Shown here: in pieces, positions 10,529 through 31,541 of the stretch
Layout: every line of letters starts with the position of its first letter
How positions within the stretch are numbered: the first letter of the stretch is position 1
Origin: an uncultured Gammaproteobacteria bacterium
Lineage (GTDB): Bacteria > Patescibacteriota > Microgenomatia > Levybacterales > UBA12049
DNA: 64,000 nucleotides
Assembly (NCBI GenBank): GCA_964474445.1
Contig: CAYYSJ010000007.1
Location: 3,112 to 67,111 of the forward strand
Reading direction: 5' to 3'
The notes under the pieces: generated by a model
What the model saw: only the letters and a program-made list of their open reading frames with translations
Databases searched by the model: none
Told to the model about the DNA's origin: nothing
Program-made: the position numbers and the translations under genes

Positions 10529-10534
10529 ATAATC

Positions 10535-12380: not shown

Positions 12381-12395
12381 CACAATTTGCTTTAT

Positions 12396-12437: not shown

Positions 12438-12443
12438 TTTATT

Positions 12444-13013: not shown

Positions 13014-13020
13014 ACTTATT

Positions 13021-15223: not shown

Positions 15224-16706
15224 GAAGGTATTGTAACATACCTTGTTGTGATGCAGAATGTTCTAACTCATCTCGTAAGAAATATGCTGCATGGAGGTAT
15301 GATATTTTTTGCTTGTAAGTTGAACATGTCCATCCAAATCCTCCTTGCTTTTTATAGTGGAAAAAATTTTGTCCATTAACACTATTTTCTTCTGTAATAG
15401 TATCTGTTGTTCCAGTTACACCATTGTATTTTTCAGGGAAGTTTTTATCTATTTCAAAAATATTTGTGAGTGTCTCTATAGAATCCTCCATAATTTTGAT
15501 TGCAGTATTCAAGAAAAGCAAACGATCTTCTTTAGGTAAGGTTTCATTAGCGGATGCATCTAATATCCCTTTAATTGCCATAAATTCAATAGGAGGAAAT
15601 ACATATGGAGCATCCCATTGCTTAGGCTTTAGCATTTTTTGAACAGCTTTTAAATTTCTCCTCATAACCCCGATTTCTTCAAATGATTTATTTTCTACAG
15701 GAGGCTGTAGAGATTCTTGCGCATCAACAATAAGCCCGTGCCCTTTATCAAATTTAGGCAAGTGAGCCAACATTCTTTTTAATTGTTCAGGCGTTGCAAG
15801 ACCAGACCATGCAGTAGCAAAAGCTGCAAGTGAATAAAAATCATCACGTTCTTTCTCTACATAATTAAAATCAAAGAAAAATCCTTTCTCGTCATCCCAC
15901 ATTAACTCATTTATTCTTTGTTTTCTCTTTTCTGCTTCCTGATTCCAATATTTTGCTTCCTCTACATTTCCAGTTATTTCAGCAGCCTTAGCAAAATCCA
16001 TTTCGTATTTATAAAGAAAACAGTTGAGATCAATAGGCAGATATTCTTCTGCTCTTCCAGCAAAACGGGATGTAAAATCCCACCCTGATTCTCGCTCAGC
16101 ATTCCAACCATACCCAGTATCTCTATCTCCATAACGAGATAAACCATATTCATCCACATAATGATGATATCTTCCAATGCCTTCTTCACCATCAGATCTA
16201 TTTGTCCAAACTAAAGAATATTCTTTTTTAGCTTCTTCTATTGCAGTCTGTAACCATTCTTTCTCTGCTGGTGTATCTTTATCAGGAATTGCTTGATATG
16301 TTTCCATAATCATTGATGAAAGAAGTGGAGCCTGAGAGCTAATCAGGAACGATTCAAGAGAAGCATTTGGAATAATATGATGATCATCCAATTCTTTACA
16401 GAGTGCTGCAATTGTAGACTTTGCTATATCAATATCATTCGGCGTATTAAGATTACCTTGCATCATAAAGTAACTATCCCAATAGAAAAGCAAAGGGAAT
16501 CTTTCTGTATTAGGAATGCGAAACCGTCTATCACCCAAACCAATTGCGCCTATTTCTGGAATATAGGCAGGCTGAGTACGAACAGTTTTTGCAGTAAATT
16601 CATCTACATAAGCAAGTGCATGTTGAATTCGAGGCGAATGCAAATCAAGCTTAGGGCGCCTTGTTAATTCTCTCCCACTAATTCTTTCTATTACCATAAG
16701 ATACAA
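15186..16706 (-). CDS. Trehalase-like glycoside hydrolase (GH37-type (alpha/alpha)6 barrel)
   Basis: 506 aa. 'LLFYWDSYF' resembles trehalase signature 1 (ExYxWDxY) and 'KQWDAPYVFPP' resembles signature 2 (QWDxPxxWxP). Overlaps the rarA start by 38 nt, so the true start may be internal. Confidence 0.5.
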   Translation of the reverse strand: MYLMVIERISGRELTRRPKLDLHSPRIQHALAYVDEFTAKTVRTQPAYIPEIGAIGLGDRRFRIPNTERFPLLFYWDSYFMMQGNLNTPNDIDIAKSTIAALCKELDDHHIIPNASLESFLISSQAPLLSSMIMETYQAIPDKDTPAEKEWLQTAIEEAKKEYSLVWTNRSDGEEGIGRYHHYVDEYGLSRYGDRDTGYGWNAERESGWDFTSRFAGRAEEYLPIDLNCFLYKYEMDFAKAAEITGNVEEAKYWNQEAEKRKQRINELMWDDEKGFFFDFNYVEKERDDFYSLAAFATAWSGLATPEQLKRMLAHLPKFDKGHGLIVDAQESLQPPVENKSFEEIGVMRRNLKAVQKMLKPKQWDAPYVFPPIEFMAIKGILDASANETLPKEDRLLFLNTAIKIMEDSIETLTNIFEIDKNFPEKYNGVTGTTDTITEENSVNGQNFFHYKKQGGFGWTCSTYKQKISYLHAAYFLRDELEHSASQQGMLQYLHESSISNASSIA

Positions 16707-16913
16707 AAAACAAGCATATTCCTATGCTTATTGTGTTACTTGACACAAAGCTGACAGAAATTGTACCTGCAAGCCTGTAGTTTTACAATGTATATCAGAT
16801 ACGTATTGCCATTGTGTATGAGAAACGGTATTAAATGCTGACCTGTCTAGTTGATGTCAAGTAGGCTGCACTCTGCCGCTGTACCATAACCATTACTAGT
16901 ACAGAACACATAT

Positions 16914-18599
16914 ATGGGTACTGAAATTCGATCACAATTGAAGCAAGTGAGGCAAGATTTACCTCACAATTTTCAGGTGCGTACATTTCCTAATAAGGTA
17001 GGTCTGGTAAATAGATTACGACTTTGGAAAGAGATGTCGCGTGAGATGAGGCATTTTAGAGGTGAGGTGTGGCATAAAGATGAGATATGGGCAAGTAACA
17101 GTGAGAATTATAGTTATGCTTTTTTTGGAAGAGATAGTCTTGAAGCCTCGGAAGATACCCTTCCCTTTGATACCACATTTGCAAGAGACACTATTCGCAA
17201 TTTAAGTAGACTGCAAGGCCGCTCATATAATGCTGTGACAGAAGAAGAACCAGGGAAAATTGTTCATGAATTCAGACAAAAAAGTAATACCCACCCACAA
17301 GCAACGCAGGAAATCTTTCAAAAACTCCATGATATGTGGGGGGAAAAAGGAACAGATTTTGTTAGTTATTACGGTAGTGCAGATGCAACGCCACTCTACA
17401 TACGACTTGTTGCAGATTATTGCCAACAGGTAGGCAATACCAACATTCTTGATGAAATAATAATCCAGAAAGATGGAAAAGAAAAATCAATTAGAGAAGT
17501 CTTATGGAACAGTTTGGAATGGTTACAACGACGCGTTGAAGATGGTCCTCTAGGACCTGATGGATTATCTACTGAGCCTCATCCTGACAAAAGAATAAAA
17601 CTTCTTGAATTTAAGCGAATGAATGAAAAAGGAATCGAAAATCCCATTTGGAAAGATTCTCTTACTTCCGTCATGCACCCAGACGGAACATTAGCAAATC
17701 ATGATTATCCTATTGCAACAATTGAGCTGCAAGGTTTAGCTTATGATGCATTAACAAAGGGAACAGAACTTTTTAAAGAAGACTATACAAAGGCTCAAGC
17801 GAGAGCTGGTATGCTCCTCACTGCCTCTGAGGTTCAACTGAATACGTTGACTCATTTTTGGATGCCTGAGCGGAATTATTTTGCCGTTGGGTTAGATAGA
17901 GACGATAATGGTAATTATAGACAAATACGAACTATAGAATCAAACCCAGCAGAACTTCTGAATACGACATTTTTTGATAAGCTCCCTGAGCATATGAGAC
18001 AACCGTATATCACAGGTATTGTTAATACAATTTATAGTAAGAACTTTTTAACAGACGTTGGAGTTAGATGCAGATCATTAGAATACACAGGTATGATAGA
18101 TTTCTGGGATTATCATGGAGTTCACGCTGTGTGGCCAAAAGAAACATATGATATTGCAAAAGGACTTTTGAAGCAAGGATTTCCTCAATTAGCAGAACAA
18201 CTTTTTTTTCGTATGAGAAACGGTATGAAAGTTGAAAACTCATTTGCCGAATTATTTTACGTTGACGATGATGGTTCTGTAGCTTATAAACCAAAAAAAT
18301 TACTCGACACAAATGCACAACACGGCAAGGTTATTGTCACAACATCTGTTCCTGAAGACAAACAAACATGGTCTTGGAGTGCATACATTGCAAGTGTCCT
18401 TAATAGAAGGATAAAACCAAACATACTATCTTGGCAATATAAACTTGAAGAGCAACTTCTTCTTGCAAATCCGTTAGTAGAACCTCTTTCATTTAGAAAA
18501 GCCAGAGCTCTTATGCGAAGAGCATACGTCATTGATCAGCAAACTGCATTTGATAGAGAAAGAGTGTTCAAAGGAAAACTGAGACGAACTGCAGATTAA
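16914..18599 (+). CDS. Glycogen debranching enzyme-like glycoside hydrolase, paralog of 1258..3072
   Basis: 561 aa sharing collinear motif blocks with the first GDE-like ORF ('KLLEFKRMNEKG', 'YPIATIELQG..DAL', 'HFWMPERNYFAVGLDRDDNG', 'NTTFFD', 'FLTDVGVRCR', 'DFWDYHG'). Confidence 0.6.
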   Translation: MGTEIRSQLKQVRQDLPHNFQVRTFPNKVGLVNRLRLWKEMSREMRHFRGEVWHKDEIWASNSENYSYAFFGRDSLEASEDTLPFDTTFARDTIRNLSRLQGRSYNAVTEEEPGKIVHEFRQKSNTHPQATQEIFQKLHDMWGEKGTDFVSYYGSADATPLYIRLVADYCQQVGNTNILDEIIIQKDGKEKSIREVLWNSLEWLQRRVEDGPLGPDGLSTEPHPDKRIKLLEFKRMNEKGIENPIWKDSLTSVMHPDGTLANHDYPIATIELQGLAYDALTKGTELFKEDYTKAQARAGMLLTASEVQLNTLTHFWMPERNYFAVGLDRDDNGNYRQIRTIESNPAELLNTTFFDKLPEHMRQPYITGIVNTIYSKNFLTDVGVRCRSLEYTGMIDFWDYHGVHAVWPKETYDIAKGLLKQGFPQLAEQLFFRMRNGMKVENSFAELFYVDDDGSVAYKPKKLLDTNAQHGKVIVTTSVPEDKQTWSWSAYIASVLNRRIKPNILSWQYKLEEQLLLANPLVEPLSFRKARALMRRAYVIDQQTAFDRERVFKGKLRRTAD

Positions 18600-19156: not shown

Positions 19157-20203
19157 ATGAGACAGATAAAACCAGTAAACAAAACAGTACGAAAAATTGC
19201 AATTTTTCGGGCTCTTCAATTAGGAGATATGCTTTGCAGTATTCCGTCATTTCGTGCACTCAGAGCATATTATCCGGATACCAAAATTACGCTCATAGGG
19301 CTTCCTTGGGCGAGGGATTTTGCACAAAGATTTCCTCACTATATTAACGAATTTTTTGCATTTCCAGGATATCCCTCTTTGCCGGAAAGAAAATTTAATC
19401 TTGAAGCATTTCCACGATTTTTACAAAAAGTGCAAGACGAACAATTTGATCTCGTTTTTCAAATGCATGGATTAGGTACAATAACGAATCCACTCATCAC
19501 ACTCTTTCATGCAAAACAGTCTGCCGGATTTTATATAAAAAATACCTATTGCCCTAACAAGAAAATGTTTTTTATCTATCCAGAAGAACTCCATGAAACA
19601 CATAAATATTTATTCTTACTTAAACAACTTGGGATTCCCTCTCAAGGGAACTATTTAGAATTTCCTATATCAAAAACCGAAGAGTATCAAACAACAATAC
19701 TCATGCAAACATATGGCATAAAAAAGAAGAAATATATTATGTTGCATCCAGGAGGAAGAGATAAGAAAAGACAAAATGGTGTTACACTCTTCTCTACACT
19801 TGCAAATGTTCTTACTCATCAAGGGTATACTGTTGTTCTGACAGGAACTGCAAACGAACAGACTCTTTGTAAACAAATACTCAAAGAAACCACTTCAAAA
19901 AATATCATTGACCTTTCTGGAAAAACACAGTTAGGCCAACTTGCGTATATCATACAACATGCTTCACTTCTTGTTTCTAACGATACCGGCGCATCTCATC
20001 TTGCTGACGCACTTCATACACCAAGTGTTATTCTTTTTACACCTTACTCAAATCAAAATCGTTGGGCACCCTTAAATACGCAGCTCCATATATCACTCGC
20101 CCCACCCTACTCTCTTGACCAGATACTGAATACTGCAACTGCACTACTTTATCATGATATGGCAAGTCGCGTATCTCCAAGAAAGGAGCACTATGCAAAC
20201 TAA
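19157..20203 (+). CDS. GT9 family glycosyltransferase (ADP-heptose-dependent heptosyltransferase-like), copy 1
   Basis: 348 aa. N-terminal 'KIAIFRALQLGDMLCSIPSFRALRAYYPDTKITLIG' and C-terminal 'SNDTGASHLADAL' are the conserved GT9 (WaaC/WaaF/WaaQ-like) blocks. Confidence 0.75.
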   Translation: MRQIKPVNKTVRKIAIFRALQLGDMLCSIPSFRALRAYYPDTKITLIGLPWARDFAQRFPHYINEFFAFPGYPSLPERKFNLEAFPRFLQKVQDEQFDLVFQMHGLGTITNPLITLFHAKQSAGFYIKNTYCPNKKMFFIYPEELHETHKYLFLLKQLGIPSQGNYLEFPISKTEEYQTTILMQTYGIKKKKYIMLHPGGRDKKRQNGVTLFSTLANVLTHQGYTVVLTGTANEQTLCKQILKETTSKNIIDLSGKTQLGQLAYIIQHASLLVSNDTGASHLADALHTPSVILFTPYSNQNRWAPLNTQLHISLAPPYSLDQILNTATALLYHDMASRVSPRKEHYAN

Positions 20204-21203
20204 CAGACCTCGGATACTTACCTGGCATATTCATGGAAGTTATTTATATTACTTAACACAAACTGCATGCGAATTTTATATTCCGGTAAAAGAGGAACGA
20301 CCAGATCGCTATATTGGCTTGCCTGAAGGTGACTTCCCTTGGGGAGAGAATGCTCACGAAATTGCAGCTGAAAAAATAAAAGAGCTTGATTTTGATTGTA
20401 TCCTTTTTCAGTCTCAAGAAAATTATACCCAGGATCAGTATGAGGTTCTTTCAGCACAACAGCTTAGCCTGCCCAAAGTATATCTTGAGCATGATCCTCC
20501 TCGTGAAACACCGACAGATACCAAACACATTGTTGATGATCCAGATATCTTGCTAGTCCATGTCACGCATTTTAATAATGTATTTTGGGACAATAATCAA
20601 ACTCCGACAACTGTTATTGAACATGGTGTTTCCATTCCAAAAGATATCCAGTATGTGGGAAACTTGCGTAAAGGCATTGTTGTTGTTAATAACCTTCAGA
20701 CAAGAGGAAGAAGACTTGGACTCGATATTTTTGAATCAGTAAAAAAGCACATTCCAGTAGATATTATTGGTATAAACTCACAATATGTTGGAGGACTTGG
20801 GGAAATTTCTCATCAAAGACTTCCCTCATTTCTTGCTCACTATAGATTTTTCTTCCACCCCATCAGATATACCAGTTTAGGACTCGCCGCTTGTGAAGCA
20901 ATGATGATAGGACTTCCCATTGTTGGATTATCAACAACAGAGATGCCAGATGTGATTGAAAATGGTAAAGAAGGGTTTTTACACAACGATATCGCTACTT
21001 TAATACAACACATGCAAGAGTTACTCAATGATAAGGCATATGCGAAAAGATTGAGTCAAAATGCAAAGAATAAAGCATTGAAAAAGTTTCACATAAAGCG
21101 TTTTGTAGAAGATTGGGAAGATCTTTTTCAATCTGAAATACAAAAGCATAAGAGGAAAGCTCTACAACATACAATGAGAAAAAGTATAGGAGGAATTTTA
21201 TGA
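20193..21203 (+). CDS. GT4 family (GT-B, retaining) glycosyltransferase
   Basis: C-terminal 'EAMMIGLPIVGLSTTEMPDVIENGKEGFL' matches the GT4 E-x7-E region. I prefer the start at ATG 20193 (AGGAG RBS) over the track start 20154; it overlaps the upstream gene by 11 nt. Confidence 0.7.
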   Translation: MQTNRPRILTWHIHGSYLYYLTQTACEFYIPVKEERPDRYIGLPEGDFPWGENAHEIAAEKIKELDFDCILFQSQENYTQDQYEVLSAQQLSLPKVYLEHDPPRETPTDTKHIVDDPDILLVHVTHFNNVFWDNNQTPTTVIEHGVSIPKDIQYVGNLRKGIVVVNNLQTRGRRLGLDIFESVKKHIPVDIIGINSQYVGGLGEISHQRLPSFLAHYRFFFHPIRYTSLGLAACEAMMIGLPIVGLSTTEMPDVIENGKEGFLHNDIATLIQHMQELLNDKAYAKRLSQNAKNKALKKFHIKRFVEDWEDLFQSEIQKHKRKALQHTMRKSIGGIL

Positions 21204-23104
21204 AAAAAAGATTAGCTTTTATATCAGAGCATGCATCTCCCCTAGCCGCATTAGGAGGAGTTGATAGCGGAGGACAAAATTTATATGTAGACCAAGTAGC
21301 CAAGCATCTTTCAATGTTAGGGTATGAAATTGATATTTTTACGCGTTGGGATAATCACCAACTTCCTAAAGTGATTAATTATCAAAATGGCATACGTGTT
21401 ATTCATATAAAAGCAGGTCCTGTCCAATACATTAAGAAAGAACTGCTCCTTTCCTATATGCATGAGTTTACTATAGAGATGTTACGGTTTATTGAGGAAG
21501 AGGAACTTACCTATAAGTTAATCCATGCTAACTTTTTTATGTCAGCACTTGTTGCTTCAGAAATAAAAAAGGAACTTCGAATTCCCTTCGTTGTCACATT
21601 CCATGCATTAGGAAAAATACGACGTATGTATCAAGGTGACAAAGATACATTTCCCGATACGCGATTTACTATCGAAAAAGAAGTATGCAACAGTGCGGAT
21701 CAAATTATCGCAGAATGTCCCCAAGATAAAGAAGATCTCATGTATCACTATCATGCAAGCCAAGATAAAATAAGCATTATACCTTGTGGATTTGATCCAA
21801 ATGAGGTATACCCTCTTGATAAACATCTTGCAAAAATCACCATAGGACTTGATCCTCACAAGAAATATATTTTGCAACTAGGTCGTATTGTCCCCCGAAA
21901 AGGTATTGATACTGTTATTGCTTCATTTGCAAAACTTCGTAAAAAAACACAAGGACAAGTAAAACTACTCATTGTTGGAGGAGAATCTGATGAGCCAAAT
22001 TCTTCTATTACTCCCGAAATTGGAAGACTACAAAACATTGCGAAAGCATTACATGTTGCAACAGATGTCATCTTTTTAGGGAGACGATCACGTGAACAGT
22101 TAAAATATGTATATAATGCTGCTGATATCTTTATCAGTGTCCCGTGGTATGAGCCATTTGGTATCACTCCTCTTGAAGCAATGGCATGCGGAACACCAGT
22201 GATTGGTTCTCGTGTTGGAGGAATAAAATTTAGTGTTATCGATGGAAAAACCGGTTTTTTAGTAGAACCACATGATACAGAAATGCTTGCAACAAAAATG
22301 CAGGAATTGTTAACAAATGAAAAGCTTGGAAGATCTTTCTCAGAGAATTCGCTAAAAAGAGTTAATGAATTCTTTACATGGAAAACTGTTGCATCAATGC
22401 TTTCAACAATCTACGAAAAAATTCTTTACTCCCAAAAACTTTCTGTTCAACAATATAATGAACAATCAGATATTGTAGACAGAAACTTTGAAGTACTCAT
22501 AACAACTGTTCAACGGTCTCAACAAAAACTGCGACTGTCCATTGTTCATACAACCCGAATTTTGTATACGTGTTTACAAAATGATGGAAAGATACTGATT
22601 TGTGGAAACGGAGGAAGTGCGACAGATGCTCAACATTTTGCAGGAGAACTCGTTGGCAGATTTAAAATAGAAGATAGACTTGCCCTCCCTGTCCTTTCCT
22701 TAACAGCAGATTCATCAATATTAACAGCAATAGGCAATGACTATTCATTTGAGAATATTTTTGCAAGGCAAGTTGAAGCATATGGGAAACCGGGAGATGT
22801 CCTTATTGCAATTAGTACAAGTGGTAATTCAAAAAATATTATCAATGCTCTCAAGACAGCGAGAGAAAAGGACCTTATCTGTATCGGATTTACAGGCAGA
22901 AGCGGTGGAAAGATGATAGATGATTGTGATATTTCACTTGTTGTCCCTGCAGATCAAACTTCCCTCATCCAAGAAATTCATACGCACCTGATTCATTCGA
23001 TATGTGAACTTATTGAAAAACAACTGTTTTACTCTCATGAACAATCACTATCTAAATCTAAAAAAAATATAAACGATACAATGCCAGTGGCAAAAAATGG
23101 ATAA
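21200..23104 (+). CDS. Fusion protein: GT4 glycosyltransferase + SIS-domain sedoheptulose-7-phosphate isomerase (GmhA-like)
   Basis: 634 aa. Residues ~1-400 are a GT4 fold ('GGQNLYV', 'EPFGITPLEAMACGTPVIGS', 'E..NG..GFLVEP'). Residues ~440-620 are a SIS domain with GmhA hallmark 'ILICGNGGSATDAQHFAGELVGRF' and 'ISTSGNSKNI'. Confidence 0.7.
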   Translation: MKKRLAFISEHASPLAALGGVDSGGQNLYVDQVAKHLSMLGYEIDIFTRWDNHQLPKVINYQNGIRVIHIKAGPVQYIKKELLLSYMHEFTIEMLRFIEEEELTYKLIHANFFMSALVASEIKKELRIPFVVTFHALGKIRRMYQGDKDTFPDTRFTIEKEVCNSADQIIAECPQDKEDLMYHYHASQDKISIIPCGFDPNEVYPLDKHLAKITIGLDPHKKYILQLGRIVPRKGIDTVIASFAKLRKKTQGQVKLLIVGGESDEPNSSITPEIGRLQNIAKALHVATDVIFLGRRSREQLKYVYNAADIFISVPWYEPFGITPLEAMACGTPVIGSRVGGIKFSVIDGKTGFLVEPHDTEMLATKMQELLTNEKLGRSFSENSLKRVNEFFTWKTVASMLSTIYEKILYSQKLSVQQYNEQSDIVDRNFEVLITTVQRSQQKLRLSIVHTTRILYTCLQNDGKILICGNGGSATDAQHFAGELVGRFKIEDRLALPVLSLTADSSILTAIGNDYSFENIFARQVEAYGKPGDVLIAISTSGNSKNIINALKTAREKDLICIGFTGRSGGKMIDDCDISLVVPADQTSLIQEIHTHLIHSICELIEKQLFYSHEQSLSKSKKNINDTMPVAKNG

Positions 23105-23112
23105 ACAAACGA

Positions 23113-23835
23113 ATGGAAACGTTGAAAAATAAAATTATTCTTATTACAGGTGCAGGACAAGGACTTGGTGAAGCAACAAGTCGAGTACTAGCAAAAGAGG
23201 GTGCAATTATCCTGGCTGCTGATATTCAATATGAATTAGTTGTTTCACTCATTGAGGATCTTATTGCACAAGGGTATCAAGGTGAAGCGTTTCATCTTGA
23301 CGTAACAAACGATGACTCTATACAAAAAGTGCTTGACACTATTATGAATAGTTATGGACATATCGATGTTTTAATTAATAATGCGGGGATCGATGTAACC
23401 AAGCCTATTGAAGAAATAGCGATTGAAGAATTTGACCACATTCTTTCGGTCAATTTACGAGCACCATTTATATTATCAAAGTCTGTTCTTCCTTTTATGA
23501 AACACTCTGGAGGGAGTATTGTCAATATTATTTCTACAGCAGCAAAACGTGCATGGGTAAATGCTTCTGCTTATCATGCAAGTAAATGGGGATTATTAGG
23601 ACTCTCCTATGCATTACATGTTGAAGGAAGAAAAAAACATATTAGGGTTTCAGCTGTTGTTGCAGGAGGGATGAAGACACCTTTTATTTTAAACCGTTTT
23701 CCTGATACACCGCTTGAGGTGTTACAGAACCCTGAAAGAGTTGCTGAAATCATTAAGTGTGTGCTTTTGGTACCTGAAGAATCAGTCGTCCCTGAAGTAA
23801 TGGTGCTTCCTATGCAAGAAACATCATGGCCATGA
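23113..23835 (+). CDS. Classical short-chain dehydrogenase/reductase (SDR)
   Basis: 240 aa. 'ITGAGQGLGEA' cofactor motif, 'NNAG' motif, catalytic 'YHASKWG' (YxxxK). Confidence 0.8.
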   Translation: METLKNKIILITGAGQGLGEATSRVLAKEGAIILAADIQYELVVSLIEDLIAQGYQGEAFHLDVTNDDSIQKVLDTIMNSYGHIDVLINNAGIDVTKPIEEIAIEEFDHILSVNLRAPFILSKSVLPFMKHSGGSIVNIISTAAKRAWVNASAYHASKWGLLGLSYALHVEGRKKHIRVSAVVAGGMKTPFILNRFPDTPLEVLQNPERVAEIIKCVLLVPEESVVPEVMVLPMQETSWP

Positions 23836-24398
23836 TTATGAAAAAAGCAATTTTTATTGATAAGGATGGGACACTGATTACCAATGTTCCTTATAATGTA
23901 GACGTTAATAAAATACAACTCGTGAATGATGTTGGACCAAGTCTCCTGCGTCTTTCCCAACATGGATATCTGTTTGTTGTCATAACAAATCAGTCCGGCA
24001 TTGCAAAAGGATTATTTACCGAAGAACAGCTATCTCCTGTTTTTCAAACAATACAAGCACTTTTAGATGCATTTCATGTAACTCTTGCTGGGTTTTATTA
24101 TTGTCCACATCATCCTCAGGGGACTATCAGTTCGTATACAAAGACTTGTTTTTGTCGCAAACCTTTACCTGGTCTTCTTTTCCAAGCAGCATCTGATTTA
24201 CACATAGACATTTCTTCCTCATGGATGATTGGGGATATGCTAACAGACGTTGAAACTGGAAATAAGGCAGGGTGTAAAACGATATTGCTCCACAATAGTA
24301 ATGACATAGAAGAAGATATATCTCCTCATAATATTCCCTATTACATAGCACCAACCTTTCGCGACATCGTTGACGCAATACTTCTATCAGAGAAGTGA
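23826..24398 (+). CDS. gmhB: D-glycero-D-manno-heptose 1,7-bisphosphate phosphatase (HAD family)
   Basis: 190 aa. HAD motif I 'IFIDKDGTLI', 'VITNQSGIAKG', Zn-binding-like 'CPHHP...CFCRKP' loop, motif 'MIGDMLTDVETG'. Confidence 0.75.
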   Translation: MAMIMKKAIFIDKDGTLITNVPYNVDVNKIQLVNDVGPSLLRLSQHGYLFVVITNQSGIAKGLFTEEQLSPVFQTIQALLDAFHVTLAGFYYCPHHPQGTISSYTKTCFCRKPLPGLLFQAASDLHIDISSSWMIGDMLTDVETGNKAGCKTILLHNSNDIEEDISPHNIPYYIAPTFRDIVDAILLSEK

Positions 24399-24428
24399 CT
24401 ACAATCGATACACCCAATTATATACTGT

Positions 24429-25913
24429 ATGATTCGTGATTTTTCGACAATATTAAAAAAAATTGAAAACCTATCCTTTATTGTTATAGGAGATGCCATG
24501 TTAGATGTGTATATACGAGGACTTTCGCAAAGACTCTCTCGAGAAGCGCCAGTCCCCATTATCGCAGTTGAGGATAGGCAAGAGCGTGCAGGAGGAGCAG
24601 CAAATACAGCCATTAATGTGGCACAATTCGGCGCTCATTGCTATTTTATGTCTACAATTGGAGAAGATCCCGAAGGAGACAGTCTTATACAGATACTAGA
24701 TAGCAATGGTGTTCATACAGAAACTCTAATAAGGGAAAACAAAAGAACATTAAGCAAACAAAGAGTATGCGCTCAAGATCAACAACTCGTTCGATTTGAT
24801 TATGGAAATGATAAAAAAATTAACAAAAGCACAGAACACAAGTTGATTACAGCTCTTTCACAACTTCACCAGCAATGTGATGGTATTATTATTTCTGACT
24901 ATGAATATGGAACGATAACAGAAGCTATTAGAGAGGAACTCTACTCTCTCCAAAAAATATTAAAGAAAATTATTGTCGTCGATGCAAAACACCCTCAGAA
25001 ATATTCACTTCTCTCTCCAACACTCGTAAAACCAAATTTTGCTGAGACCATGGATCTTTTACAAATAAAGGACTATCCAACAACAAACAGAATAGCTTTT
25101 ATAGATTCCTATAAAGACCAAATCCTTGAAAAAACAGGAGCATGTATCGTAGCAGTAACACTTGATAAAGAAGGGAGCATTGTCTTTCAGCAAAAAAGTA
25201 ATTCATATCAAATACCAACCACTCCAATGGATAATGCAAAAGCTGCTGGCGCTGGTGATACATATACCGCAATGTTTGCACTTTCACTTGCGGCACAGGG
25301 AGAAATTTTTACTGCAGCGCATGTAGCAGCAGTAGCAGCAGGAATTGTTATCCAGAAAGATCTTACTGCAATTTGTACAAAATCAGATTTGTACTTTTAC
25401 TACTATTCACAACAAAAACAACTTCAGTATTCAGACATGCCACAATTTATACAGTCTATAAGAACACAGAAAAAACGGATTGTGTTCACAAATGGTTGTT
25501 TCGATATTATTCACAGCGGACATATTACCTATTTACAAGAAGCAAAAAATCTTGGCGATATATTAATTGTAGGACTCAACACTGATGAGAGTGTCAAAAG
25601 GCTCAAAGGAAAAGAACGACCAATTAATACATTACTAGATCGCATGCATGTCTTATCTGGGCTAGCAAGTGTTGATTATGTTATTCCATTTGCAGAAGAT
25701 ACTCCTATTGCTCTTATCAAAAAAATTTGTCCAGATATTTATGTAAAAGGGGGAGACTATACAAGAGAAACATTACCTGAAGTACCAATTGTAGAACGTT
25801 TGGGAGGACGACTCGAGATTATTCCTTATGTAAAAGACCATTCCACAACAAACATTATTCGACAGATACAAGAAAAAACATCTGGAAAATCTATGTTACA
25901 TTCTTATGAATAA
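24429..25913 (+). CDS. hldE: Bifunctional D-beta-D-heptose 7-phosphate kinase / D-beta-D-heptose 1-phosphate adenylyltransferase
   Basis: 494 aa. N-terminal pfkB-type sugar kinase ('VIGDAMLDVYI', 'GGAANTA', 'GAGDT'). C-terminal cytidylyltransferase-like domain ('FTNGCFDIIHSGHITYL', 'LIVGLNTDESV'). Confidence 0.85.
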   Translation: MIRDFSTILKKIENLSFIVIGDAMLDVYIRGLSQRLSREAPVPIIAVEDRQERAGGAANTAINVAQFGAHCYFMSTIGEDPEGDSLIQILDSNGVHTETLIRENKRTLSKQRVCAQDQQLVRFDYGNDKKINKSTEHKLITALSQLHQQCDGIIISDYEYGTITEAIREELYSLQKILKKIIVVDAKHPQKYSLLSPTLVKPNFAETMDLLQIKDYPTTNRIAFIDSYKDQILEKTGACIVAVTLDKEGSIVFQQKSNSYQIPTTPMDNAKAAGAGDTYTAMFALSLAAQGEIFTAAHVAAVAAGIVIQKDLTAICTKSDLYFYYYSQQKQLQYSDMPQFIQSIRTQKKRIVFTNGCFDIIHSGHITYLQEAKNLGDILIVGLNTDESVKRLKGKERPINTLLDRMHVLSGLASVDYVIPFAEDTPIALIKKICPDIYVKGGDYTRETLPEVPIVERLGGRLEIIPYVKDHSTTNIIRQIQEKTSGKSMLHSYE

Positions 25914-27000
25914 AGATTGGCGACTGGTTCGCAATATACTCTGTATTCGTCCTGACAATATGGGAGATGTCATTATGACTCAACCCGCACTTCGAGCACT
26001 TAAAGAATCACAACAAGAGGTACATATTACTCTGCTCACATCAGATATTGGAGCAAACATTACTCCATATATTCCAGAAATTGATAAAACAATTGCATAC
26101 AATGTCCCATGGGTAAAAGCTTCTGGTACCGACGTACCCCAATTATCTTCTCTTATCCAAACTCTTAGCAAAGAGCAATTTGATGCAGCTGTTATTTTTA
26201 CGAATTTCAGTCAAAGTGCACATCCTTCTGCTGCTATTTCTTTACTTGCTCATATCCCTAAGAGATTGGCATATTCACGCGAACGTGTGTATGATCTCCT
26301 GACAGATTGGGTAGCTGATACAGAACCCTTTACTCCTCTTATACATGGTGTAGAAAGAAACCTAAAATTAGTAGCGACGATAGGTGCAACAACAATAAAT
26401 ACCAATCTTTCCTTAAAAATTCTGTCAGAAGATTTTCAAAATCTTTTAACACTTCTTTTTCAGACGAGCCTTGACTTAACAAAACCGTGGGTCATTATTC
26501 ACCCGGGAGTAGAAGATAAAAAAAGACAATTCCCTGTTGGACGTCTTGCAGAAGTAGCGCGCCTACTCATCCATAAGGGATATCAAATACTTTTGACAGG
26601 CACTCAAAAAGAAGAACAACAAATACATCACATGCAACAGCTTCTCCAAAAAAGAGCAATTAACCTTGGTGGAAAACTATCATTAGGGGAATTCCTCGGT
26701 CTTTTAAGAATTTCTCCTTTAGTAATAGCGAATAATACTGGAGTCGTTCATATGGCTGCAGCACTCAACACACCAGTTATCGTTTTATATGCAAGAACAA
26801 ATCCAGAACATACTCCATGGAATGTTAAAAGTTATGTTTTTTATTTTGACACATCGTCGAGCCTAAAAAGTAAGGTTCCTCTACTCTCATACATCGCACC
26901 GCATGATCAAATCCCTTTGCCAAAAGCAATGGAAATTCTTGAAGCTGCTTTAGCGATATTAGCATCGTATACTCATTCACCGAACTTCCAATTTTTATGA
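25906..27000 (+). CDS. GT9 family glycosyltransferase (heptosyltransferase-like), copy 2
   Basis: 364 aa. 'ILCIRPDNMGDVIMTQPALRALK' N-terminal GT9 block and 'ANNTGVVHMAAAL' C-terminal block. The stop TGA overlaps the next ATG (ATGA). Confidence 0.75.
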   Translation: MNKDWRLVRNILCIRPDNMGDVIMTQPALRALKESQQEVHITLLTSDIGANITPYIPEIDKTIAYNVPWVKASGTDVPQLSSLIQTLSKEQFDAAVIFTNFSQSAHPSAAISLLAHIPKRLAYSRERVYDLLTDWVADTEPFTPLIHGVERNLKLVATIGATTINTNLSLKILSEDFQNLLTLLFQTSLDLTKPWVIIHPGVEDKKRQFPVGRLAEVARLLIHKGYQILLTGTQKEEQQIHHMQQLLQKRAINLGGKLSLGEFLGLLRISPLVIANNTGVVHMAAALNTPVIVLYARTNPEHTPWNVKSYVFYFDTSSSLKSKVPLLSYIAPHDQIPLPKAMEILEAALAILASYTHSPNFQFL

Positions 27001-27800
27001 AAAACGTAACTGTCCTTATACCTACACTCAATAGAACAACATCACTTGCAGTAATGCTGATGAGTATTGTTTTTCAAACCTACACTAACTTTGATGTAGT
27101 GATTTCAGATCAAAGTGACACGAACAGTCCTTTTGAAGACCCTACTATCCAAACAGTTATTCGTCTTTTCAGGCAAAAAAATCATACAGTACATACTCTT
27201 GTTAACCTCCCGAAATATGGAATAGCACAACAACGGCAATTTCTTCTGGATCATGCTCATACGTCATATAGTCTTTTTCTTGATGATGATCTTATTCTCG
27301 AGCCATATGTCTTAGAAGGCATGGTGAAAGTTATTGAAAAGGAAAACTGCGGTTTTGTAGGACGTGCTCCTATTGGATTAAGTTTCTATAATGATGTTCG
27401 TTGTCAAGAAGAACATATTCGCTTTTGGAAAGGGAAAGTGAAACCTGAAACAGTATCACCAAATACCTCAAAGTGGAACCGGCATCGTATTCATAATGCA
27501 GCAAACATTCTGCACATCGAAGAGAAACTGGGCATTACCTATGAGAAGCAAAAGACATATAAGATTGCATGGATTGGTGCTTGTGTATTATATGATACAG
27601 AAAAATTAAAAAAAACGGGAGGATTTTCTTTTTGGAAAAAACTACCTTCAGCTCATTGCGGAGAAGATGTCTTGGCTCAACTTAGGGTGATGAAAAAGTA
27701 CGGCGGATGTGGCATACTTCCTTCAGGAGTCTATCATCAAGAAGTACCAACAACACTTCCTTCCAGGGATATTAATGCTCCTGAATTTATCAGCGTATGA
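26997..27800 (+). CDS. GT2 family glycosyltransferase
   Basis: 267 aa. 'VLIPTLNR' start of a GT-A fold, 'FLDDD' DxD motif. Confidence 0.7.
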   Translation: MKNVTVLIPTLNRTTSLAVMLMSIVFQTYTNFDVVISDQSDTNSPFEDPTIQTVIRLFRQKNHTVHTLVNLPKYGIAQQRQFLLDHAHTSYSLFLDDDLILEPYVLEGMVKVIEKENCGFVGRAPIGLSFYNDVRCQEEHIRFWKGKVKPETVSPNTSKWNRHRIHNAANILHIEEKLGITYEKQKTYKIAWIGACVLYDTEKLKKTGGFSFWKKLPSAHCGEDVLAQLRVMKKYGGCGILPSGVYHQEVPTTLPSRDINAPEFISV

Positions 27801-28519
27801 AATTTGTACCCTATACAATTATTGATAAACAGCAAGAATTGGAAGATACCTATATTATTCGTTTAGCGCCTTTGTATAAAAATATTTTTGATTTTTTAGC
27901 AGGGCAATATTGTTATCTTCTTAATCCTACCTACAAAGATCCAAAAGATCCTCATCCTTTCTCCATTGCATCATCTCCATTCCAACGAGACTATTTAGAA
28001 TTTTGCGTTAAAACATATGGAGAGTGGACTACGTCATTTGTCAAAAAATCAGTAGGAAAAGAAGTCCTTGTCTCAGACCCTTTAGGAGAATTTACTTGGT
28101 CACGTGATATCTCATATGCTGTATTTCTTTTAGGAGGCATCGGTATCGCGCCTATTATGTCTATACTCAGAACTCTCGCAACATCTCACAGTTCCATTCC
28201 ACTAACGATACTTTATGGAAACCGAAACCCAGGAACAATTGCATATAAGAAAGAACTGGAGGAGCTTACGAAGCACCTTGCCTTAAACATCATCCACATT
28301 TTTTCAGATAGTGATATCCATTCTTTGGGGAATGAATATCAAGGCTTTATTACAAAAGAGATACTTCTCAAAGAAGTTAACTTTACAAACAAATCTACTT
28401 TTTTTATTGTCGGTCCACCGATCTTTGTTGAGAAAATGAATACCATTCTTTCTGACATGCACATTACAAAACAGCAACAAAGACAAGAGCTGCTTGCCGT
28501 TCTTTCTGTACCTGTATGA
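27797..28519 (+). CDS. FNR-like FAD/NAD(P)-binding oxidoreductase (ferredoxin reductase-type, no Fe-S domain)
   Basis: 240 aa. FAD motif 'HPFSIASSP' (RxYS-type), NAD(P) motif 'LLGGIGIAPIMS' (GGxGxxP), C-terminal 'FIVGPP'. Confidence 0.6.
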   Translation: MKFVPYTIIDKQQELEDTYIIRLAPLYKNIFDFLAGQYCYLLNPTYKDPKDPHPFSIASSPFQRDYLEFCVKTYGEWTTSFVKKSVGKEVLVSDPLGEFTWSRDISYAVFLLGGIGIAPIMSILRTLATSHSSIPLTILYGNRNPGTIAYKKELEELTKHLALNIIHIFSDSDIHSLGNEYQGFITKEILLKEVNFTNKSTFFIVGPPIFVEKMNTILSDMHITKQQQRQELLAVLSVPV

Positions 28520-28537
28520 GTAAAAAGCCAATATTGC

Positions 28538-29587
28538 ATGCCAAAACATACTCTTCATGATGTTAAAAAAATCGCTTTGTTGCGAGCAAATGCATTAGGT
28601 GACTTTTTTTTCGCTTACCCTGCACTGTGCGCATTAAGAAATGCCTATACAGATGCAGAAATTGTCTATTTAGGCAAACCTTGGCATAAAGAATTTCTCG
28701 AGTCACGAATATCTCCTATTAATCGTGTTATTGTTGTTCCTCCTAGCATAGGTGTGCGAGAAGAAAAAGACTATCTATGTAGCAAAGAAGAACTAGATAT
28801 CTTTTTTGCTGAGATGAAAAAAGAACATTTTGATCTTGCCATACAAATGCATGGAGGGGGAAAGTACTCAAATCCATTTATTTTGAAACTTGGAGCAAAA
28901 ACCACCGTAGGACTGAAAACACCTGATGCATCACCCCTTGATATATCGATCCCCTATGATTTGTATCAAAATGAATTTCTAAAATATTTAGAAGTTGTTG
29001 GATGCATTGGGGCAGTAACAAAAAATCTTCATCCTCTGCTTTCTGTTACCAAAACAGATCTCTCCCTCGCAAAAGACTATGTCCCTTCGAAACCTTTTAT
29101 TGTTATGCATCCTGGTGCATCCGATCCTCGAAGGAGATGGCCGGAAAAATACTTTATTGAAATAGGAGATATCCTTTCAAGAAAGGGGTTCAGCATCATC
29201 ATAACTGGCACAGAAGCTGAAAAAGAGATTGCTGCACATATTATTTCTCGTATGCAAAAAAACGCAATTAACTTATGTGGAGCTAGTAACCTCAGTACTC
29301 TTACTGGAATTTTGGCTCTTTCACAGCTTGTCATTTCCAATGATAGCGGCCCCCTGCACCTTGCTGATGCTGTGGGAGCAAGAACCGTTGGAATATATTG
29401 GGTTGGAAATGCGATGAACAGTTCTCCTCTTATTCGTGCTGGTAAAAAAGTCTTGTTTTCCTGGACGCTGTTGTGTCCTTTCTGTCATACAAACTGTATT
29501 GAGAAAAATTGTGGACATGAAGTTTCTTTTGTAGAAGATATCAAACCAAAACAAGTCATCGAAGCTGCATACCAATTGTTACAGTAA
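28538..29587 (+). CDS. GT9 family glycosyltransferase (heptosyltransferase-like), copy 3, with C-terminal Cys4 cluster
   Basis: 349 aa. 'KIALLRANALGDFFFAYPAL', 'ISNDSGPLHLADAVG', and a C-terminal 'LLCPFCHTNCIEKNCGHE' four-Cys motif absent from copies 1 and 2. Confidence 0.7.
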   Translation: MPKHTLHDVKKIALLRANALGDFFFAYPALCALRNAYTDAEIVYLGKPWHKEFLESRISPINRVIVVPPSIGVREEKDYLCSKEELDIFFAEMKKEHFDLAIQMHGGGKYSNPFILKLGAKTTVGLKTPDASPLDISIPYDLYQNEFLKYLEVVGCIGAVTKNLHPLLSVTKTDLSLAKDYVPSKPFIVMHPGASDPRRRWPEKYFIEIGDILSRKGFSIIITGTEAEKEIAAHIISRMQKNAINLCGASNLSTLTGILALSQLVISNDSGPLHLADAVGARTVGIYWVGNAMNSSPLIRAGKKVLFSWTLLCPFCHTNCIEKNCGHEVSFVEDIKPKQVIEAAYQLLQ

Positions 29588-29591: not shown

Positions 29592-31541
29592 TTACTCATA
29601 TCCTCTTTTTTGCAGCTGAAAAAATTGAGCATATAATCCGTACTTGTCTAAAAGTTCTTGGTGAGAACCTTGTTCGATAAGTTCTCCTTTCTCTAACACA
29701 TAAATTTTATGCGCCATTCTTACGTTTGAAAATCTATGTGAAATAAAAAGAAGGTTTTTTGTTTTGTAAAGCTCTTTCAGCTTATCAAAGATTTTCACTT
29801 CTCCATCCGGATCTATTGCGCTCGTTGGCTCATCGACGATCAGTATTGGAGCATCTCGAAAAATTGCTCTTGCAATTGCAACCTTTTGCCACTGTCCACC
29901 AGATAATTCAACACCACTATCAAACCATCTTCCAAGAACTTGTTGATATCCTTTTGGCAAAAATCGTAGAAGATCTTCACTATGAGAATGTTTGAGAGCG
30001 TTTTCTACTTCTTCTCGTTTTTGCTCTCTACTTTCCATTCCCTTTAATTTTTCAAGATTTCCAAACCAAATATTTTCTTCAAGACTCAAATAATACTTTG
30101 CAAAGTCCTGAAATAACACGCCAATATGCTGGTACCAATGTTCTATATCAATATGTTTTAAATCAACCCCATCAACAAGAATTCTTCCATCTGTTGGATC
30201 ATAGAATCGAAAAAGCAATTTAATCAGTGTACTTTTCCCTGCTCCATTATGACCAACAATTGCAGTATCTTGTCCTTTTTCGATAACCAAATTGATATTC
30301 TTTAATGAGTAAGCTTCTGCTCCTGGGTACTTAAAACTAACATTGTCAAAAATAATTTGACGAGGTCCAATCGTATCAAAATATTTTGGGTTATCTGGAA
30401 TAAATGTTGTATTTTTTATATCAAGTAAATTGAAGTAATCTTCTAAATAAAGGCTGTTTTCGCTGACGGCTCCAATATTAATAAGAATACTGGAAATTTG
30501 TCCAGAAAATGTAAAAAGGATATTAAGGAAAAAGGTAAAATCACCGATAGAATACGCTTTTGTATCAACACCGGAGATAAAATGAGTCAAAGCAAAATAA
30601 ATAGCAATAGGAATAAGAATAAAACTTACGGTAGAAAGAAGAGAATAAAGAGCAATTGGTTTTTGATAATCTGCAACCATCTTTTTTTGAAGCTCCTCAG
30701 TTTTTTGAATAAAGTGATCCCCTAATCCATAGATTTTCATTTCTGAAAGTGTTTGAAAATTTGTGAAGAGAGATTTCAAATACCAAACATAGTTTGCTCC
30801 TGACGCATTTTTTGTTTGTGCAGACCAAGCGATATTTCCATATTTCGCGCGAAGATAATAGACAGGTGTACAAATAACTGCAAGCATAACAAAATATATC
30901 GGACTAAATTTTAATGCAATAAGTAAAGAAAATACTAATGCAGCAATGTTATACACAATTGCATTTAATGTATGAAGAATTTCTGGAAGTCTCACTGTGT
31001 AATTATTCTCAACCTTTGCAATAAGATTACGTACTTCTCCTTTTTCAAGATTAGTAAAATCCATATCCCCCAGTTTTTTCATAAAAAGGCGTGTAAGTGC
31101 ATCTTGCAGCTTTGCCTTAACAAAATAATCAAAATAATACTGATTGAAGGTAAAGTTAACAAATCGGGATAAATATTCAAAGAAAAGATACGTCCCTATG
31201 ATAATAAATAATGAATTTCCAGGTATAACACCAGCATTATGCGCAACCTGATCGATCATCAACTTATAGAGAAAATACACACCAAAAAGAAGTGATGCAC
31301 CCAAAGCGGCTGTACTAAAATATGAAATAAAAAGAATCTTGTCTTCTTTAAAAGAAATGAGGAGTAAACGCCAGATATTTGAGATAAATTTTCTTGACGA
31401 GTGTTTCTTCTTTGAGAAATGTTCTTTTTTTTTCCTCAGCGTATTATAAAGGATGGGCAGGACAGACATACGTTTTGTATTTTGGATGGCCATTGTAACA
31501 ACGAATTTTGGTAATTGCAAGCAAGCACCAAACCATTTCAA
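29592..31541 (-). CDS. ABC exporter, fused permease-ATPase (MsbA/type I exporter-like)
   Basis: 649 aa. N-terminal 6-TM domain. C-terminal NBD with Walker A 'GHNGAGKST', signature 'LSGGQWQKVAIARA', Walker B 'ILIVDEPTS'. The true start may be internal (M17 or M26). Confidence 0.85.
   Translation of the reverse strand: MKWFGACLQLPKFVVTMAIQNTKRMSVLPILYNTLRKKKEHFSKKKHSSRKFISNIWRLLLISFKEDKILFISYFSTAALGASLLFGVYFLYKLMIDQVAHNAGVIPGNSLFIIIGTYLFFEYLSRFVNFTFNQYYFDYFVKAKLQDALTRLFMKKLGDMDFTNLEKGEVRNLIAKVENNYTVRLPEILHTLNAIVYNIAALVFSLLIALKFSPIYFVMLAVICTPVYYLRAKYGNIAWSAQTKNASGANYVWYLKSLFTNFQTLSEMKIYGLGDHFIQKTEELQKKMVADYQKPIALYSLLSTVSFILIPIAIYFALTHFISGVDTKAYSIGDFTFFLNILFTFSGQISSILINIGAVSENSLYLEDYFNLLDIKNTTFIPDNPKYFDTIGPRQIIFDNVSFKYPGAEAYSLKNINLVIEKGQDTAIVGHNGAGKSTLIKLLFRFYDPTDGRILVDGVDLKHIDIEHWYQHIGVLFQDFAKYYLSLEENIWFGNLEKLKGMESREQKREEVENALKHSHSEDLLRFLPKGYQQVLGRWFDSGVELSGGQWQKVAIARAIFRDAPILIVDEPTSAIDPDGEVKIFDKLKELYKTKNLLFISHRFSNVRMAHKIYVLEKGELIEQGSHQELLDKYGLYAQFFQLQKRGYE

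Follow-up and report, generated by a model that had tools for sequence, protein, structure and literature searches.

Heptose biosynthesis is textbook lipopolysaccharide (LPS) biology, and ADP-heptose, an ALPK1-TIFA innate-immune agonist, is usually tied to Gram-negative bacteria. In the canonical pathway three reactions, those of the HldE kinase, GmhB and the HldE adenylyltransferase, lie between the product of the isomerase GmhA and the heptosyl donor. The glycosyltransferases sucrose-phosphate synthase (SPS), MshA and GlgM glycosylate small phosphorylated sugar acceptors. Here we analyze a 64-kb stretch of contig CAYYSJ010000007.1 (assembly GCA_964474445.1), referred to in its full length as the window, in which a single open reading frame (ORF) joins a family GT4 glycosyltransferase related to SPS and MshA to a GmhA-type SIS domain. 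With confidence a little above even, we read this ORF as a genuine two-enzyme protein that marks the self-sufficient form of a widely distributed heptose-glycan gene cassette, the fusion of neighbouring genes having locked the first supply enzyme to the signature GT4 of the cassette.

Full-text literature searches did not turn up any account of a GT4-GmhA protein or of the cassette, and the nearest publications were papers on the Pseudomonas LPS core and one on the ecogenomics of the candidate phyla radiation (CPR), in which ADP-heptose synthesis is noted only in Paceibacteria (PMC9166423). Each domain comes from a well-known family, and the undescribed cassette is a real knowledge gap.

A single open reading frame joins GT4 to GmhA

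The fusion gene (21200..23104, plus strand) is the sole ORF at its position and encodes 634 aa. A Shine-Dalgarno sequence (AGGAGG, 21188-21193, plus strand, read off the sequence) lies 6 nt 5' of its ATG at 21200, and this ATG overlaps the TGA stop codon (ATGA) of the upstream gene, which encodes the 349-aa glycosyltransferase GTx (20154..21203, plus strand), recognizable only in its C-terminal GT-B half (Pfam Glycos_transf_1, 215-306). On the fusion protein, Pfam places Glyco_transf_4 at residues 24-201 (1.4e-25), Glycos_transf_1 at 216-386 (2.4e-43) and SIS_2 at 436-566 (1.7e-27), while the NCBIfam matches are an MshA-like model (4-409, 293.6 bits), the GmhA model TIGR00441 (454-606, 205.8 bits) and the phosphoheptose isomerase model PRK13936 (424-613, 235 bits). 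On this basis the protein divides into a GT4 half of the retaining, SPS/MshA-like GT-B type (residues 1-412, 21200..22435), a linker of low conservation in the alignment (residues 413-423, 22436..22468), a GmhA-type SIS domain of the sedoheptulose-7-phosphate isomerase family (residues 424-613, 22469..23038) and a non-conserved tail (residues 614-634 plus stop codon, 23039..23104), all on the plus strand; the tails of homologues vary in length and sequence. An AlphaFold2 (AF2) monomer model of the protein has a mean predicted local distance difference test score (pLDDT) of 91.2, which falls to a mean of 69 in the linker block 411-420 and below 50 in tail residues 616-634, and DSSP assigns one helix to residues 394-460.

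As the sequence apparently comes from a metagenome assembly, the ORF could in principle consist of two genes joined by a missed stop codon or a frameshift near 22.44 kb. We consider the probability of such an artefact practically negligible, and comparative evidence effectively rules it out. First, a search of 5.8 billion clustered proteins yielded at least 120 full-length relatives (621-683 aa, 52-64% identity), all with the GT4 and SIS_2 Pfam domains, and a second protein search added about 35 fused clusters, bringing the fused architecture to more than 150 clusters at 90% identity from many phyla and independent projects. Second, alignments of 21 and of 86 homologues are unbroken across the junction, where residues ~410-425 are variable and are followed by the conserved first GmhA helix, with in-frame conservation on both sides. 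Third, no stop codon is present in the junction DNA (22400-22580). Because more than 150 homologues share the architecture and align through the junction, the fusion is no assembly accident. The Logan assembly of run SRR12266074, which may not be independent of the NCBI record, encodes an identical protein.

These results bear out the first-pass annotation in describing a single 634-aa ORF, in whose translation GNGGSATDAQHFAGEL and ISTSGNS are both found, and a complete GT4 joined to a complete GmhA-type SIS domain; a frameshift at the junction, which it had named as a possible refutation, is rejected on comparative grounds. Its description of the architecture as unusual does not hold, given the number of clusters and the many phyla that contain them, and taken only as a combination of domains the fusion is not rare, nor is it surprising in itself. 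The architecture is unnamed, and database names for the fused proteins vary between "glycosyltransferase", "phosphoheptose isomerase" and "D-inositol-3-phosphate glycosyltransferase".

The SIS half is 47% identical to E. coli GmhA and its best solved relatives are GmhA enzymes, the top match in the sequence search being 1TK9 (189.6 bits), to which Foldseek aligns it with a target-normalized TM-score (TMt) of 0.96, a root-mean-square deviation of 0.8 Å and 51% identity. The SIS (flavodoxin-like) fold of ~190 aa is present, with an AF2 pLDDT above 90 over the domain. E. coli residues S55, H61, E65, R69 and D94 correspond to S473, H479, E483, R487 and D514 of the window protein, and S119, T120, S121, S124, Q172 and H180 to S539, T540, S541, S544, Q591 and H599, all of them identical. 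Glu65 and His180 (E. coli numbering), which we take to be the catalytic acid/base pair of GmhA, are retained in 25 of 27 and in 27 of 27 fused homologues, respectively. Of the other residues, His61 and Gln172 are metal and substrate ligands, and S55, S119, T120, S121 and S124 make up the Ser/Thr cluster that binds phosphate. With every checked residue in place, the earlier assignment of the domain as a GmhA with an intact active site is upheld. The curated NCBIfam GmhA equivalog cut-offs are missed (205.8 versus 209.45 for TIGR00441 and 235 versus 276 for PRK13936), and the narrow miss may reflect cut-offs that are too demanding for a host far from well-studied bacteria. We infer from the established ADP-heptose pathway that the domain would convert sedoheptulose-7-phosphate to D-glycero-D-manno-heptose-7-phosphate.

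Not every SIS protein works as an isomerase, DiaA being an example of one with another role, and the domain might instead be non-enzymatic and act as a tetramerization scaffold or as a sugar-phosphate-sensing regulator of the GT4, an explanation that we judge very unlikely. It would accommodate the NCBIfam DiaA match of the SIS half (142.8 bits), the score slightly below the TIGR00441 cut-off, and two fused homologues that have lost GmhA catalytic residues yet retain the domain. On the other hand, the checked catalytic and ligand residues are all intact in the window protein, the GmhA models score 60-90 bits above DiaA, and the operon contains no second gmhA while otherwise encoding a complete ADP-heptose route.

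The two decayed proteins are the fused GT4::SIS proteins of locus L028 (10001-11935), in which nearly all GmhA catalytic residues are lost, and of locus L006 (10001-11887), which carries H61Q, E65G, D94N and Q172R. Both loci lack HldE, and in both proteins the SIS domain may persist as a structural module.

The fusion tracks the heptose-supply genes of a widespread cassette

The fusion gene is the third of ten same-strand genes, overlapping or nearly abutting, that form an operon at 19157-29587. Their order is GT9, GTx, GT4::GmhA, SDR, GmhB, HldE, GT9, GT2, a ferredoxin-reductase-like (FNR-like) oxidoreductase and GT9, followed by a convergent ABC exporter. Since it encodes GmhA together with GmhB and a bifunctional HldE, the operon is predicted to contain every step from sedoheptulose-7-phosphate to ADP-D,D-heptose.

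A genome scan with one genome per species recovered at least 593 relatives, from which 80 loci were retrieved and analyzed twice, by mapping the window proteins onto the loci and by clustering all locus ORFs without reference to the window. Both approaches gave the same conserved core of GTx, GT4, GmhB-like HAD and GT9, close to which lies another GT9. The core GTx-GT4-GmhB-GT9 is present in at least 12 phyla, the hosts belonging to Cyanobacteria, Chloroflexota, Actinomycetota, Patescibacteria, Bacteroidota, Myxococcota, Planctomycetota, Verrucomicrobiota, Acidobacteriota, Gemmatimonadota and the Beta- and Gammaproteobacteria (including Burkholderiales). Variable additions are the SDR, HldE, the soluble GT2, a NodU/TobZ-type carbamoyltransferase, a membrane-anchored GT2, an MFS or ABC exporter and, in cyanobacterial cassettes, a PucR-type regulator. 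GTx is the constant upstream partner of GT4, being found in 57 clustered loci. The GT9 orthologues are ~40-46% identical across phyla, including phyla regarded as devoid of lipid A, and their acceptor is therefore probably either universal or made by the cassette.

Co-variation with the fusion was determined by Fisher tests, as an indication, in the 54 loci whose flanks each reach 6 kb or more (24 fused, 30 unfused). HldE is present in 18/24 fused versus 8/30 unfused loci (p = 0.0008) and the SDR in 18/24 versus 7/30 (p = 0.0003). Conversely, the carbamoyltransferase of the diderm cassette version occurs in 6/24 fused versus 26/30 unfused loci (p = 5e-6). GTx is nearly invariant in both groups (23/24 and 27/30), and a HAD adjoins GT4 in 20/24 fused and 26/30 unfused loci (46/54 in all, p = 1.0), the most constant feature of the cassette. 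The HAD thus behaves as a fixed partner of GT4. Since the fusion co-varies with HldE and the decayed GmhA domains of L028 and L006 lie in loci without HldE, the GmhA domain behaves, together with HldE, as one component of a heptose-supply module, carried where the host presumably cannot supply ADP-heptose.

The architecture is evolutionarily labile, with fusion and fission apparently frequent. In a neighbour-joining tree of GT4 domains, used only for the lability of the architecture, the architecture changes ~27 times by Fitch parsimony versus ~90 times with shuffled labels, and unfused proteins are up to 82% identical to fused ones (P0482 versus the fused P0493, where P0482 may be a split gene pair). 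Fusions of GT4 are also not confined to GmhA: ~80 clusters of GT4::GmhB-type HAD fusions were found among the matches listed (from a 50%-identity library and a follow-up search), for example in Gemmataceae, where the surrounding cassette is the same and includes HldE, carbamoyltransferase, transmembrane GT2 and ABC exporters; there is one case of a GTx::GT4 fusion (P0135), and SPS::SPP architectures occur among more distant homologues. Fusions of GT4 to GmhB and to GTx are as expected if adjacent genes fuse.

Three such cases deserve mention in their own right. L083 (7992-21253) and L085 (7871-21657), both of the Gemmataceae type, combine GT4::GmhB with a carbamoyltransferase, a membrane-anchored GT2 and one or two ABC exporters, and the database names given to such proteins, "histidinol-phosphate phosphatase family protein" and "D-inositol-3-phosphate glycosyltransferase", are probably wrong. 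P0471 (839 aa), encoded on a single 4956-bp metagenome contig, is an apparent triple fusion of GT4 (10-412), GmhA (456-585) and GmhB (653-823), whose GmhA is partial, matching model positions 11-134 of 197.

We favour the fusion of neighbouring genes within a self-sufficient cassette on four grounds: the fusion co-varies with HldE, some GmhA domains have decayed, the architecture is labile, and GT4 readily fuses with whichever gene adjoins. Most likely, two translationally coupled neighbours lost the stop codon that separated them, and the fused gene would have been kept for fixed co-expression, with possibly four GT4 units assembled on a GmhA tetramer. GmhA enzymes are homotetramers with active sites where subunits meet. 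The GmhA domain would feed HldE and GmhB, and the three GT9s would transfer heptose from the resulting ADP-heptose, probably in its D,D form. The GT4 would probably act early on a phosphorylated small acceptor and GTx, GT2 and the GT9s would extend its product; all ten operon enzymes are soluble by prediction, and the adjacent ABC exporter would probably move the product out of the cytoplasm.

The GT4 half and the case for direct coupling

By sequence, the best solved relatives of the GT4 half are TeSPS from Thermosynechococcus (6KIH, 245 bits) and CgMshA from Corynebacterium (3C48, 227 bits), followed by HoSPS from H. orenii and GlgM, as opposed to only 54 bits for WaaG. By Foldseek, TMt is 0.91 to both MshA (3C4Q) and TeSPS (6KIH), the closed form of MshA being the top match (E = 7e-33, TM-score 0.91). 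TeSPS uses a sugar-phosphate acceptor, and its residues R105 and R178 hold the phosphate of sucrose-6-phosphate (PMC7264703). The numbering of the TeSPS chain was verified against four residues named in that paper. In the alignment, TeSPS His158, Glu331 and Glu339 correspond to H135, E318 and E326 of the window protein, which are invariant in 66 of 66 family members, and the GT-B fold and EX7E motif are present. R105 and R178 correspond to K80 and R155, of which K80 is retained in 66 of 66 and R155 in 65 of 66 family members from genomes (the exception being Gly in Nitrosospira L054), a conservation that speaks for position and not for function. R229 is also conserved in the GT4 half. Tyr110 and Thr134, presumably the phosphate ligands of MshA, are Phe and Ala in the window GT4. 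Taken together, the likeness to these enzymes suggests that the GT4 probably acts early, on a phosphorylated small acceptor.

Three specific assignments of the GT4 were rejected. It is not SPS proper, as it scores 139.7 against a cut-off of 576 for TIGR02472 and its partner phosphatase is GmhB-type rather than S6PP; it is not MshA, as it scores 293.6 against 462.5 for TIGR03449, the window contains no mycothiol genes and the hosts span many phyla other than actinobacteria; and both its bit scores and its context speak against WaaG. The JGI label "D-inositol-3-phosphate glycosyltransferase" on homologues is almost certainly an over-call.

The kinship with SPS raises the main alternative, possible but less likely than not, in which the two halves are coupled directly according to synthase/phosphatase logic: GmhA would produce heptose-7-phosphate, the GT4 would glycosylate it from an NDP-sugar, and the GmhB-like HAD would remove the 7-phosphate. 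The resulting disaccharide would be a primer that is extended by GT9, GTx and GT2 and exported by the ABC or MFS transporter, while HldE and GmhB would additionally supply ADP-heptose for the GT9s. Such a scheme is consistent with the identity of the best solved relatives (TeSPS, MshA, HoSPS and GlgM), with the alignment of K80 and R155 to the acceptor-phosphate ligands of TeSPS, and with the GT4-HAD adjacency in 46/54 loci, which persists without gmhA or hldE in the locus. The listed GT4::HAD clusters, the one GT4::GmhA::HAD triple fusion and the SPS::SPP proteins among distant homologues point in the same direction, and the occurrence of the cassette in phyla with unrelated envelopes makes a cassette-made GT9 acceptor probable. 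In the AF2 model, the continuous inter-domain helix (394-460) would allow a fixed geometry, although a monomer model cannot show whether the two active sites face each other. Against direct coupling, the GmhA fusion tracks HldE and not the GT4/HAD pair, degenerate GmhA domains are tolerated in fused proteins, the HAD is related closely enough to bona fide heptose-bisphosphate phosphatase to explain its presence, adjacent-gene fusions such as GTx::GT4 need no consecutive chemistry, and the presumed phosphate ligands of MshA are replaced by Phe and Ala.

The first-pass annotation had proposed that the fusion couples the first committed step of heptose synthesis to a glycosyl-transfer step, by channelling or co-regulation. 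A link between heptose supply and glycosyl transfer stands, at least as co-regulation, in an operon of heptose and heptosyl-transfer genes; channelling found no support. Nor is the fused GT4 the heptosyl-transfer step, the heptosyltransferases of the operon being separate GT9 proteins. With three reactions between the GmhA product and the heptosyl donor, channelling makes sense only if the acceptor of the GT4 is heptose-7-phosphate itself; that heptose-7-phosphate passes directly to the GT4 is no more than a plausible hypothesis. A labile fusion that tracks HldE fits the fusion of neighbouring genes at least as well as selected channelling.

Several points weigh against the supply-module reading that we favour. 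The co-variation tests assume independence among loci that share ancestry and so serve as an indication, gmhA and hldE were scored within the locus, and the GT4 tree carries no support values. The roles given to the cassette members are predictions from sequence. In 18 of the 30 unfused loci the HAD adjoins GT4 although gmhA and hldE are both missing from the locus, and the GT4::HAD fusion of L085 lies in a cassette without hldE. Furthermore, the closest relatives of the GT4 all use small sugar-phosphate acceptors. These acceptors and the constancy of the HAD in the absence of gmhA and hldE fit the synthase/phosphatase alternative better. The supply-module and direct-coupling readings are not exclusive, as the HAD could serve both roles.

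The other genes of the operon

No membrane segments were predicted in any of the ten operon proteins. The first gene encodes GT9a (19157..20203, plus strand; Pfam Glyco_transf_9, 9.1e-27), a heptosyltransferase-like family-9 glycosyltransferase that scores under all NCBIfam WaaC/WaaF/WaaQ cut-offs and has orthologues (38-47% identity) in most related loci. Downstream of the fusion gene lies the 240-aa classical SDR (23113..23835, plus strand; Pfam adh_short, 4.3e-51), whose NCBIfam matches are to generic SDR models only and which is not an HldD-type epimerase. No HldD-type epimerase was found among the ORFs scanned in the window, this SDR being the only one in the operon, and the donor is thus probably ADP-D,D-heptose.

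The GmhB-type HAD phosphatase of the heptose-1,7-bisphosphate 7-phosphatase family (23826..24398, plus strand) matches E. coli GmhB (3L8E) with 126 bits, a close likeness that makes a canonical GmhB role credible. Its zinc cap reads CPH-12 residues-CFC, with the same 12-residue spacing as in ecGmhB (PMC9798254). It scores 141.8 against an NCBIfam equivalog cut-off of 178, and about half of the 149 residues aligned to E. coli GmhB are identical, as read by eye from the alignment. No inference was drawn from Lys137, which we take to be a candidate for binding the C1 phosphate and which is not conserved among solved GmhBs (GDKLED, GDSLRD).

HldE (24429..25913, plus strand) is the bifunctional heptose-7-phosphate kinase/heptose-1-phosphate adenylyltransferase, with PfkB and CTP_transf_like domains, 385 bits to PRK11316 over residues 8-483 and 209.2 bits to rfaE_dom_II, above the cut-off of 181.5. 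The second conserved GT9 of the cassette, GT9b (25906..27000, plus strand; Pfam Glyco_transf_9, 2.3e-31), has E. coli heptosyltransferase II (1PSW, 79 bits) as its best solved relative, and its orthologues (37-46% identity) lie downstream of GT4 in most loci. Two accessory genes follow. The soluble GT2 (26997..27800, plus strand; Pfam Glycos_transf_2), for which no transmembrane segment is predicted, has orthologues (51-55% identity) in cyanobacterial and Chloroflexota loci, a GT2 being present in a minority of cassettes. The FNR-like FAD/NAD-binding oxidoreductase (27797..28519, plus strand) matches Pfam NAD_binding_1, FAD_binding_8 and FAD_binding_6. The last gene encodes GT9c (28538..29587, plus strand; Pfam Glyco_transf_9, 8.1e-29), with orthologues in only a few loci (L018, L063 and L081).

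Convergent with the operon is the ABC exporter (29592..31541, minus strand; Pfam ABC_tran, 413-574), a half transporter with a transmembrane and a nucleotide-binding domain and about six hydrophobic segments in its N-terminal 400 aa. It is a recurrent neighbour of the cassette, with a 60%-identical orthologue in Roizmanbacteria L011 and weaker ones in Burkholderiales loci; in Gemmataceae, ABC_membrane plus ABC_tran genes follow the cassette.

The host, the LPS question and the rest of the window

The host belongs to the CPR and resembles Levybacteria: the only named relatives of the Lon protease encoded in the window (3110-5479) are from Patescibacteria/Levybacteria (77-91% identity). By the prevailing view, CPR bacteria have neither an outer membrane nor LPS, which makes LPS an unlikely destination for the heptose. 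Relatives of Lon reach 93-94% identity versus 64% for the best non-self relative of the fusion protein, which suggests a patchy, horizontally moving cassette; close relatives of the host either lack it or have assemblies that miss it.

The operon could also be read as a normal gene cluster for the LPS inner core (WaaC/WaaF/WaaG type) whose gmhA happens to have merged with a WaaG-like GT4, a reading that we regard as highly improbable. The enzyme classes are the same (two to three GT9s, a GT4 and ADP-heptose genes), and diderm versions of the cassette carry a carbamoyltransferase. The Pseudomonas inner core contains carbamoylated heptose, and a paper on the Pseudomonas syringae LPS core reportedly describes this carbamoyltransferase class alongside heptosyltransferases. 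Yet the CPR host encodes a sortase and an LCP-family protein in the window, no lipid A or Kdo genes were seen among the ORFs scanned in these 64 kb, the cassette also occurs in Chloroflexota and Actinomycetota, and the GT4 is much nearer to SPS and MshA than to WaaG.

The LCP (LytR-CpsA-Psr) protein is encoded at 44420-45454 and a LytR_C-domain protein at 36623-37405, both on the minus strand. Gram-positive LCP proteins attach wall glycopolymers to peptidoglycan, and by analogy the two proteins suggest a possible destination for the operon product. Upstream of the operon, positions 8294-18599 hold further envelope-glycan machinery: a 744-aa double-GT2 protein with transmembrane segments, the sortase, an Acyl_transf_3 protein, a trehalase-family hydrolase, a 523-aa protein with eight hydrophobic segments and a 561-aa soluble protein, the last two without Pfam match. 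This region and the operon may form one larger glycan locus.

Elsewhere in the window, three NRAMP-family metal transporters and one cation-efflux (CDF) protein are encoded at 6846-8102, 48591-49892, 50248-51930 and 52783-53718, a striking concentration of metal transport genes in 64 kb for the small genome expected of a CPR bacterium. A 1314-aa ORF without Pfam match (37543-41487, minus strand) lies in a GC-rich stretch (42-45% versus ~36% in the rest of the window) and contains a 419-aa ORF on the opposite strand (39272-40531). A tRNA-Cys (GCA) gene at 62538-62609 overlaps the first 70 nt of an ORF at 62539-63594 that has no Pfam match, and this ORF or its start is probably spurious.

Discussion

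A complete ADP-heptose route together with three heptosyltransferase-like enzymes is encoded in a CPR bacterium, a member of a group not thought to make LPS, and the spread of the cassette points to a widespread, uncharacterized heptose-containing glycan or oligosaccharide and suggests that the GT9s act on something different from lipid A-Kdo. Producers of ADP-heptose outside proteobacteria would have some wider relevance through ALPK1-TIFA signalling. The fusion protein offers a handle on the isomerase activity and on the acceptor of the GT4, and knowledge of both would correct the inconsistent database names.

A bolder and rather unlikely extension is a phylum-spanning pathway for an exported heptose oligosaccharide, in which GT4::GmhA would begin with the heptose counterpart of sucrose or trehalose synthesis. 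If true, the action of a GmhB-type phosphatase would yield a glycosyl-heptose disaccharide, new and unconnected with LPS, that cytoplasmic GT9s extend, with optional carbamoylation. These would be the first GT9 enzymes to act on a soluble, cassette-made acceptor, and CPR bacteria, Chloroflexota, Actinomycetota and Cyanobacteria would be ADP-heptose producers.

Compared with known systems, the SIS half resembles the GmhA enzymes of E. coli (b0222), C. jejuni (1TK9) and B. pseudomallei (2X3Y) in fold, length, identity (47-51%) and the residues checked. The known enzymes stand alone at ~190 aa, whereas the N-terminal helix of the window GmhA runs on from the last helix of a 412-aa glycosyltransferase. 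For the GT4 half, TeSPS (Tll1590, 6KIH) is the best match by sequence and, jointly with MshA, by structure, and shares with it the catalytic His and Glu residues, the EX7E motif and the two basic positions for the acceptor phosphate. SPS enzymes also share a HAD-superfamily phosphatase as constant neighbour or fusion partner, but the partner here is a HAD-IIIA protein with a zinc cap (GmhB-type) and that of SPS is S6PP-type; moreover, the window GT4 is only ~32% identical to TeSPS and lies in the context of heptose rather than sucrose genes. With MshA (3C48/3C4Q), a D-inositol-3-phosphate N-acetylglucosaminyltransferase, it shares the AGP...KE acceptor loop and its best NCBIfam model over residues 4-409.

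Fusions of this general kind have precedents. SPS-SPP is a known synthase-phosphatase fusion, and HldE (RfaE), encoded three genes downstream of the window fusion, is the classical fusion of the ADP-heptose pathway and shows that such enzymes are prone to fuse. HldE, however, joins two enzymes of the pathway, the kinase and the adenylyltransferase, whereas the window protein joins a pathway enzyme to a glycosyltransferase from outside it. LPS inner-core clusters (WaaC/WaaF GT9s, the WaaG GT4 and the Pseudomonas carbamoyltransferase) combine the same families, with ADP-heptose as the presumed donor in both cases. Unlike them, the cassette occurs in hosts that include phyla thought to be free of LPS, its GT4 is not WaaG-like and no Kdo or lipid A genes are linked to it, while GTx, GmhB and, variably, the SDR are integral to it and an ABC or MFS exporter is adjacent.

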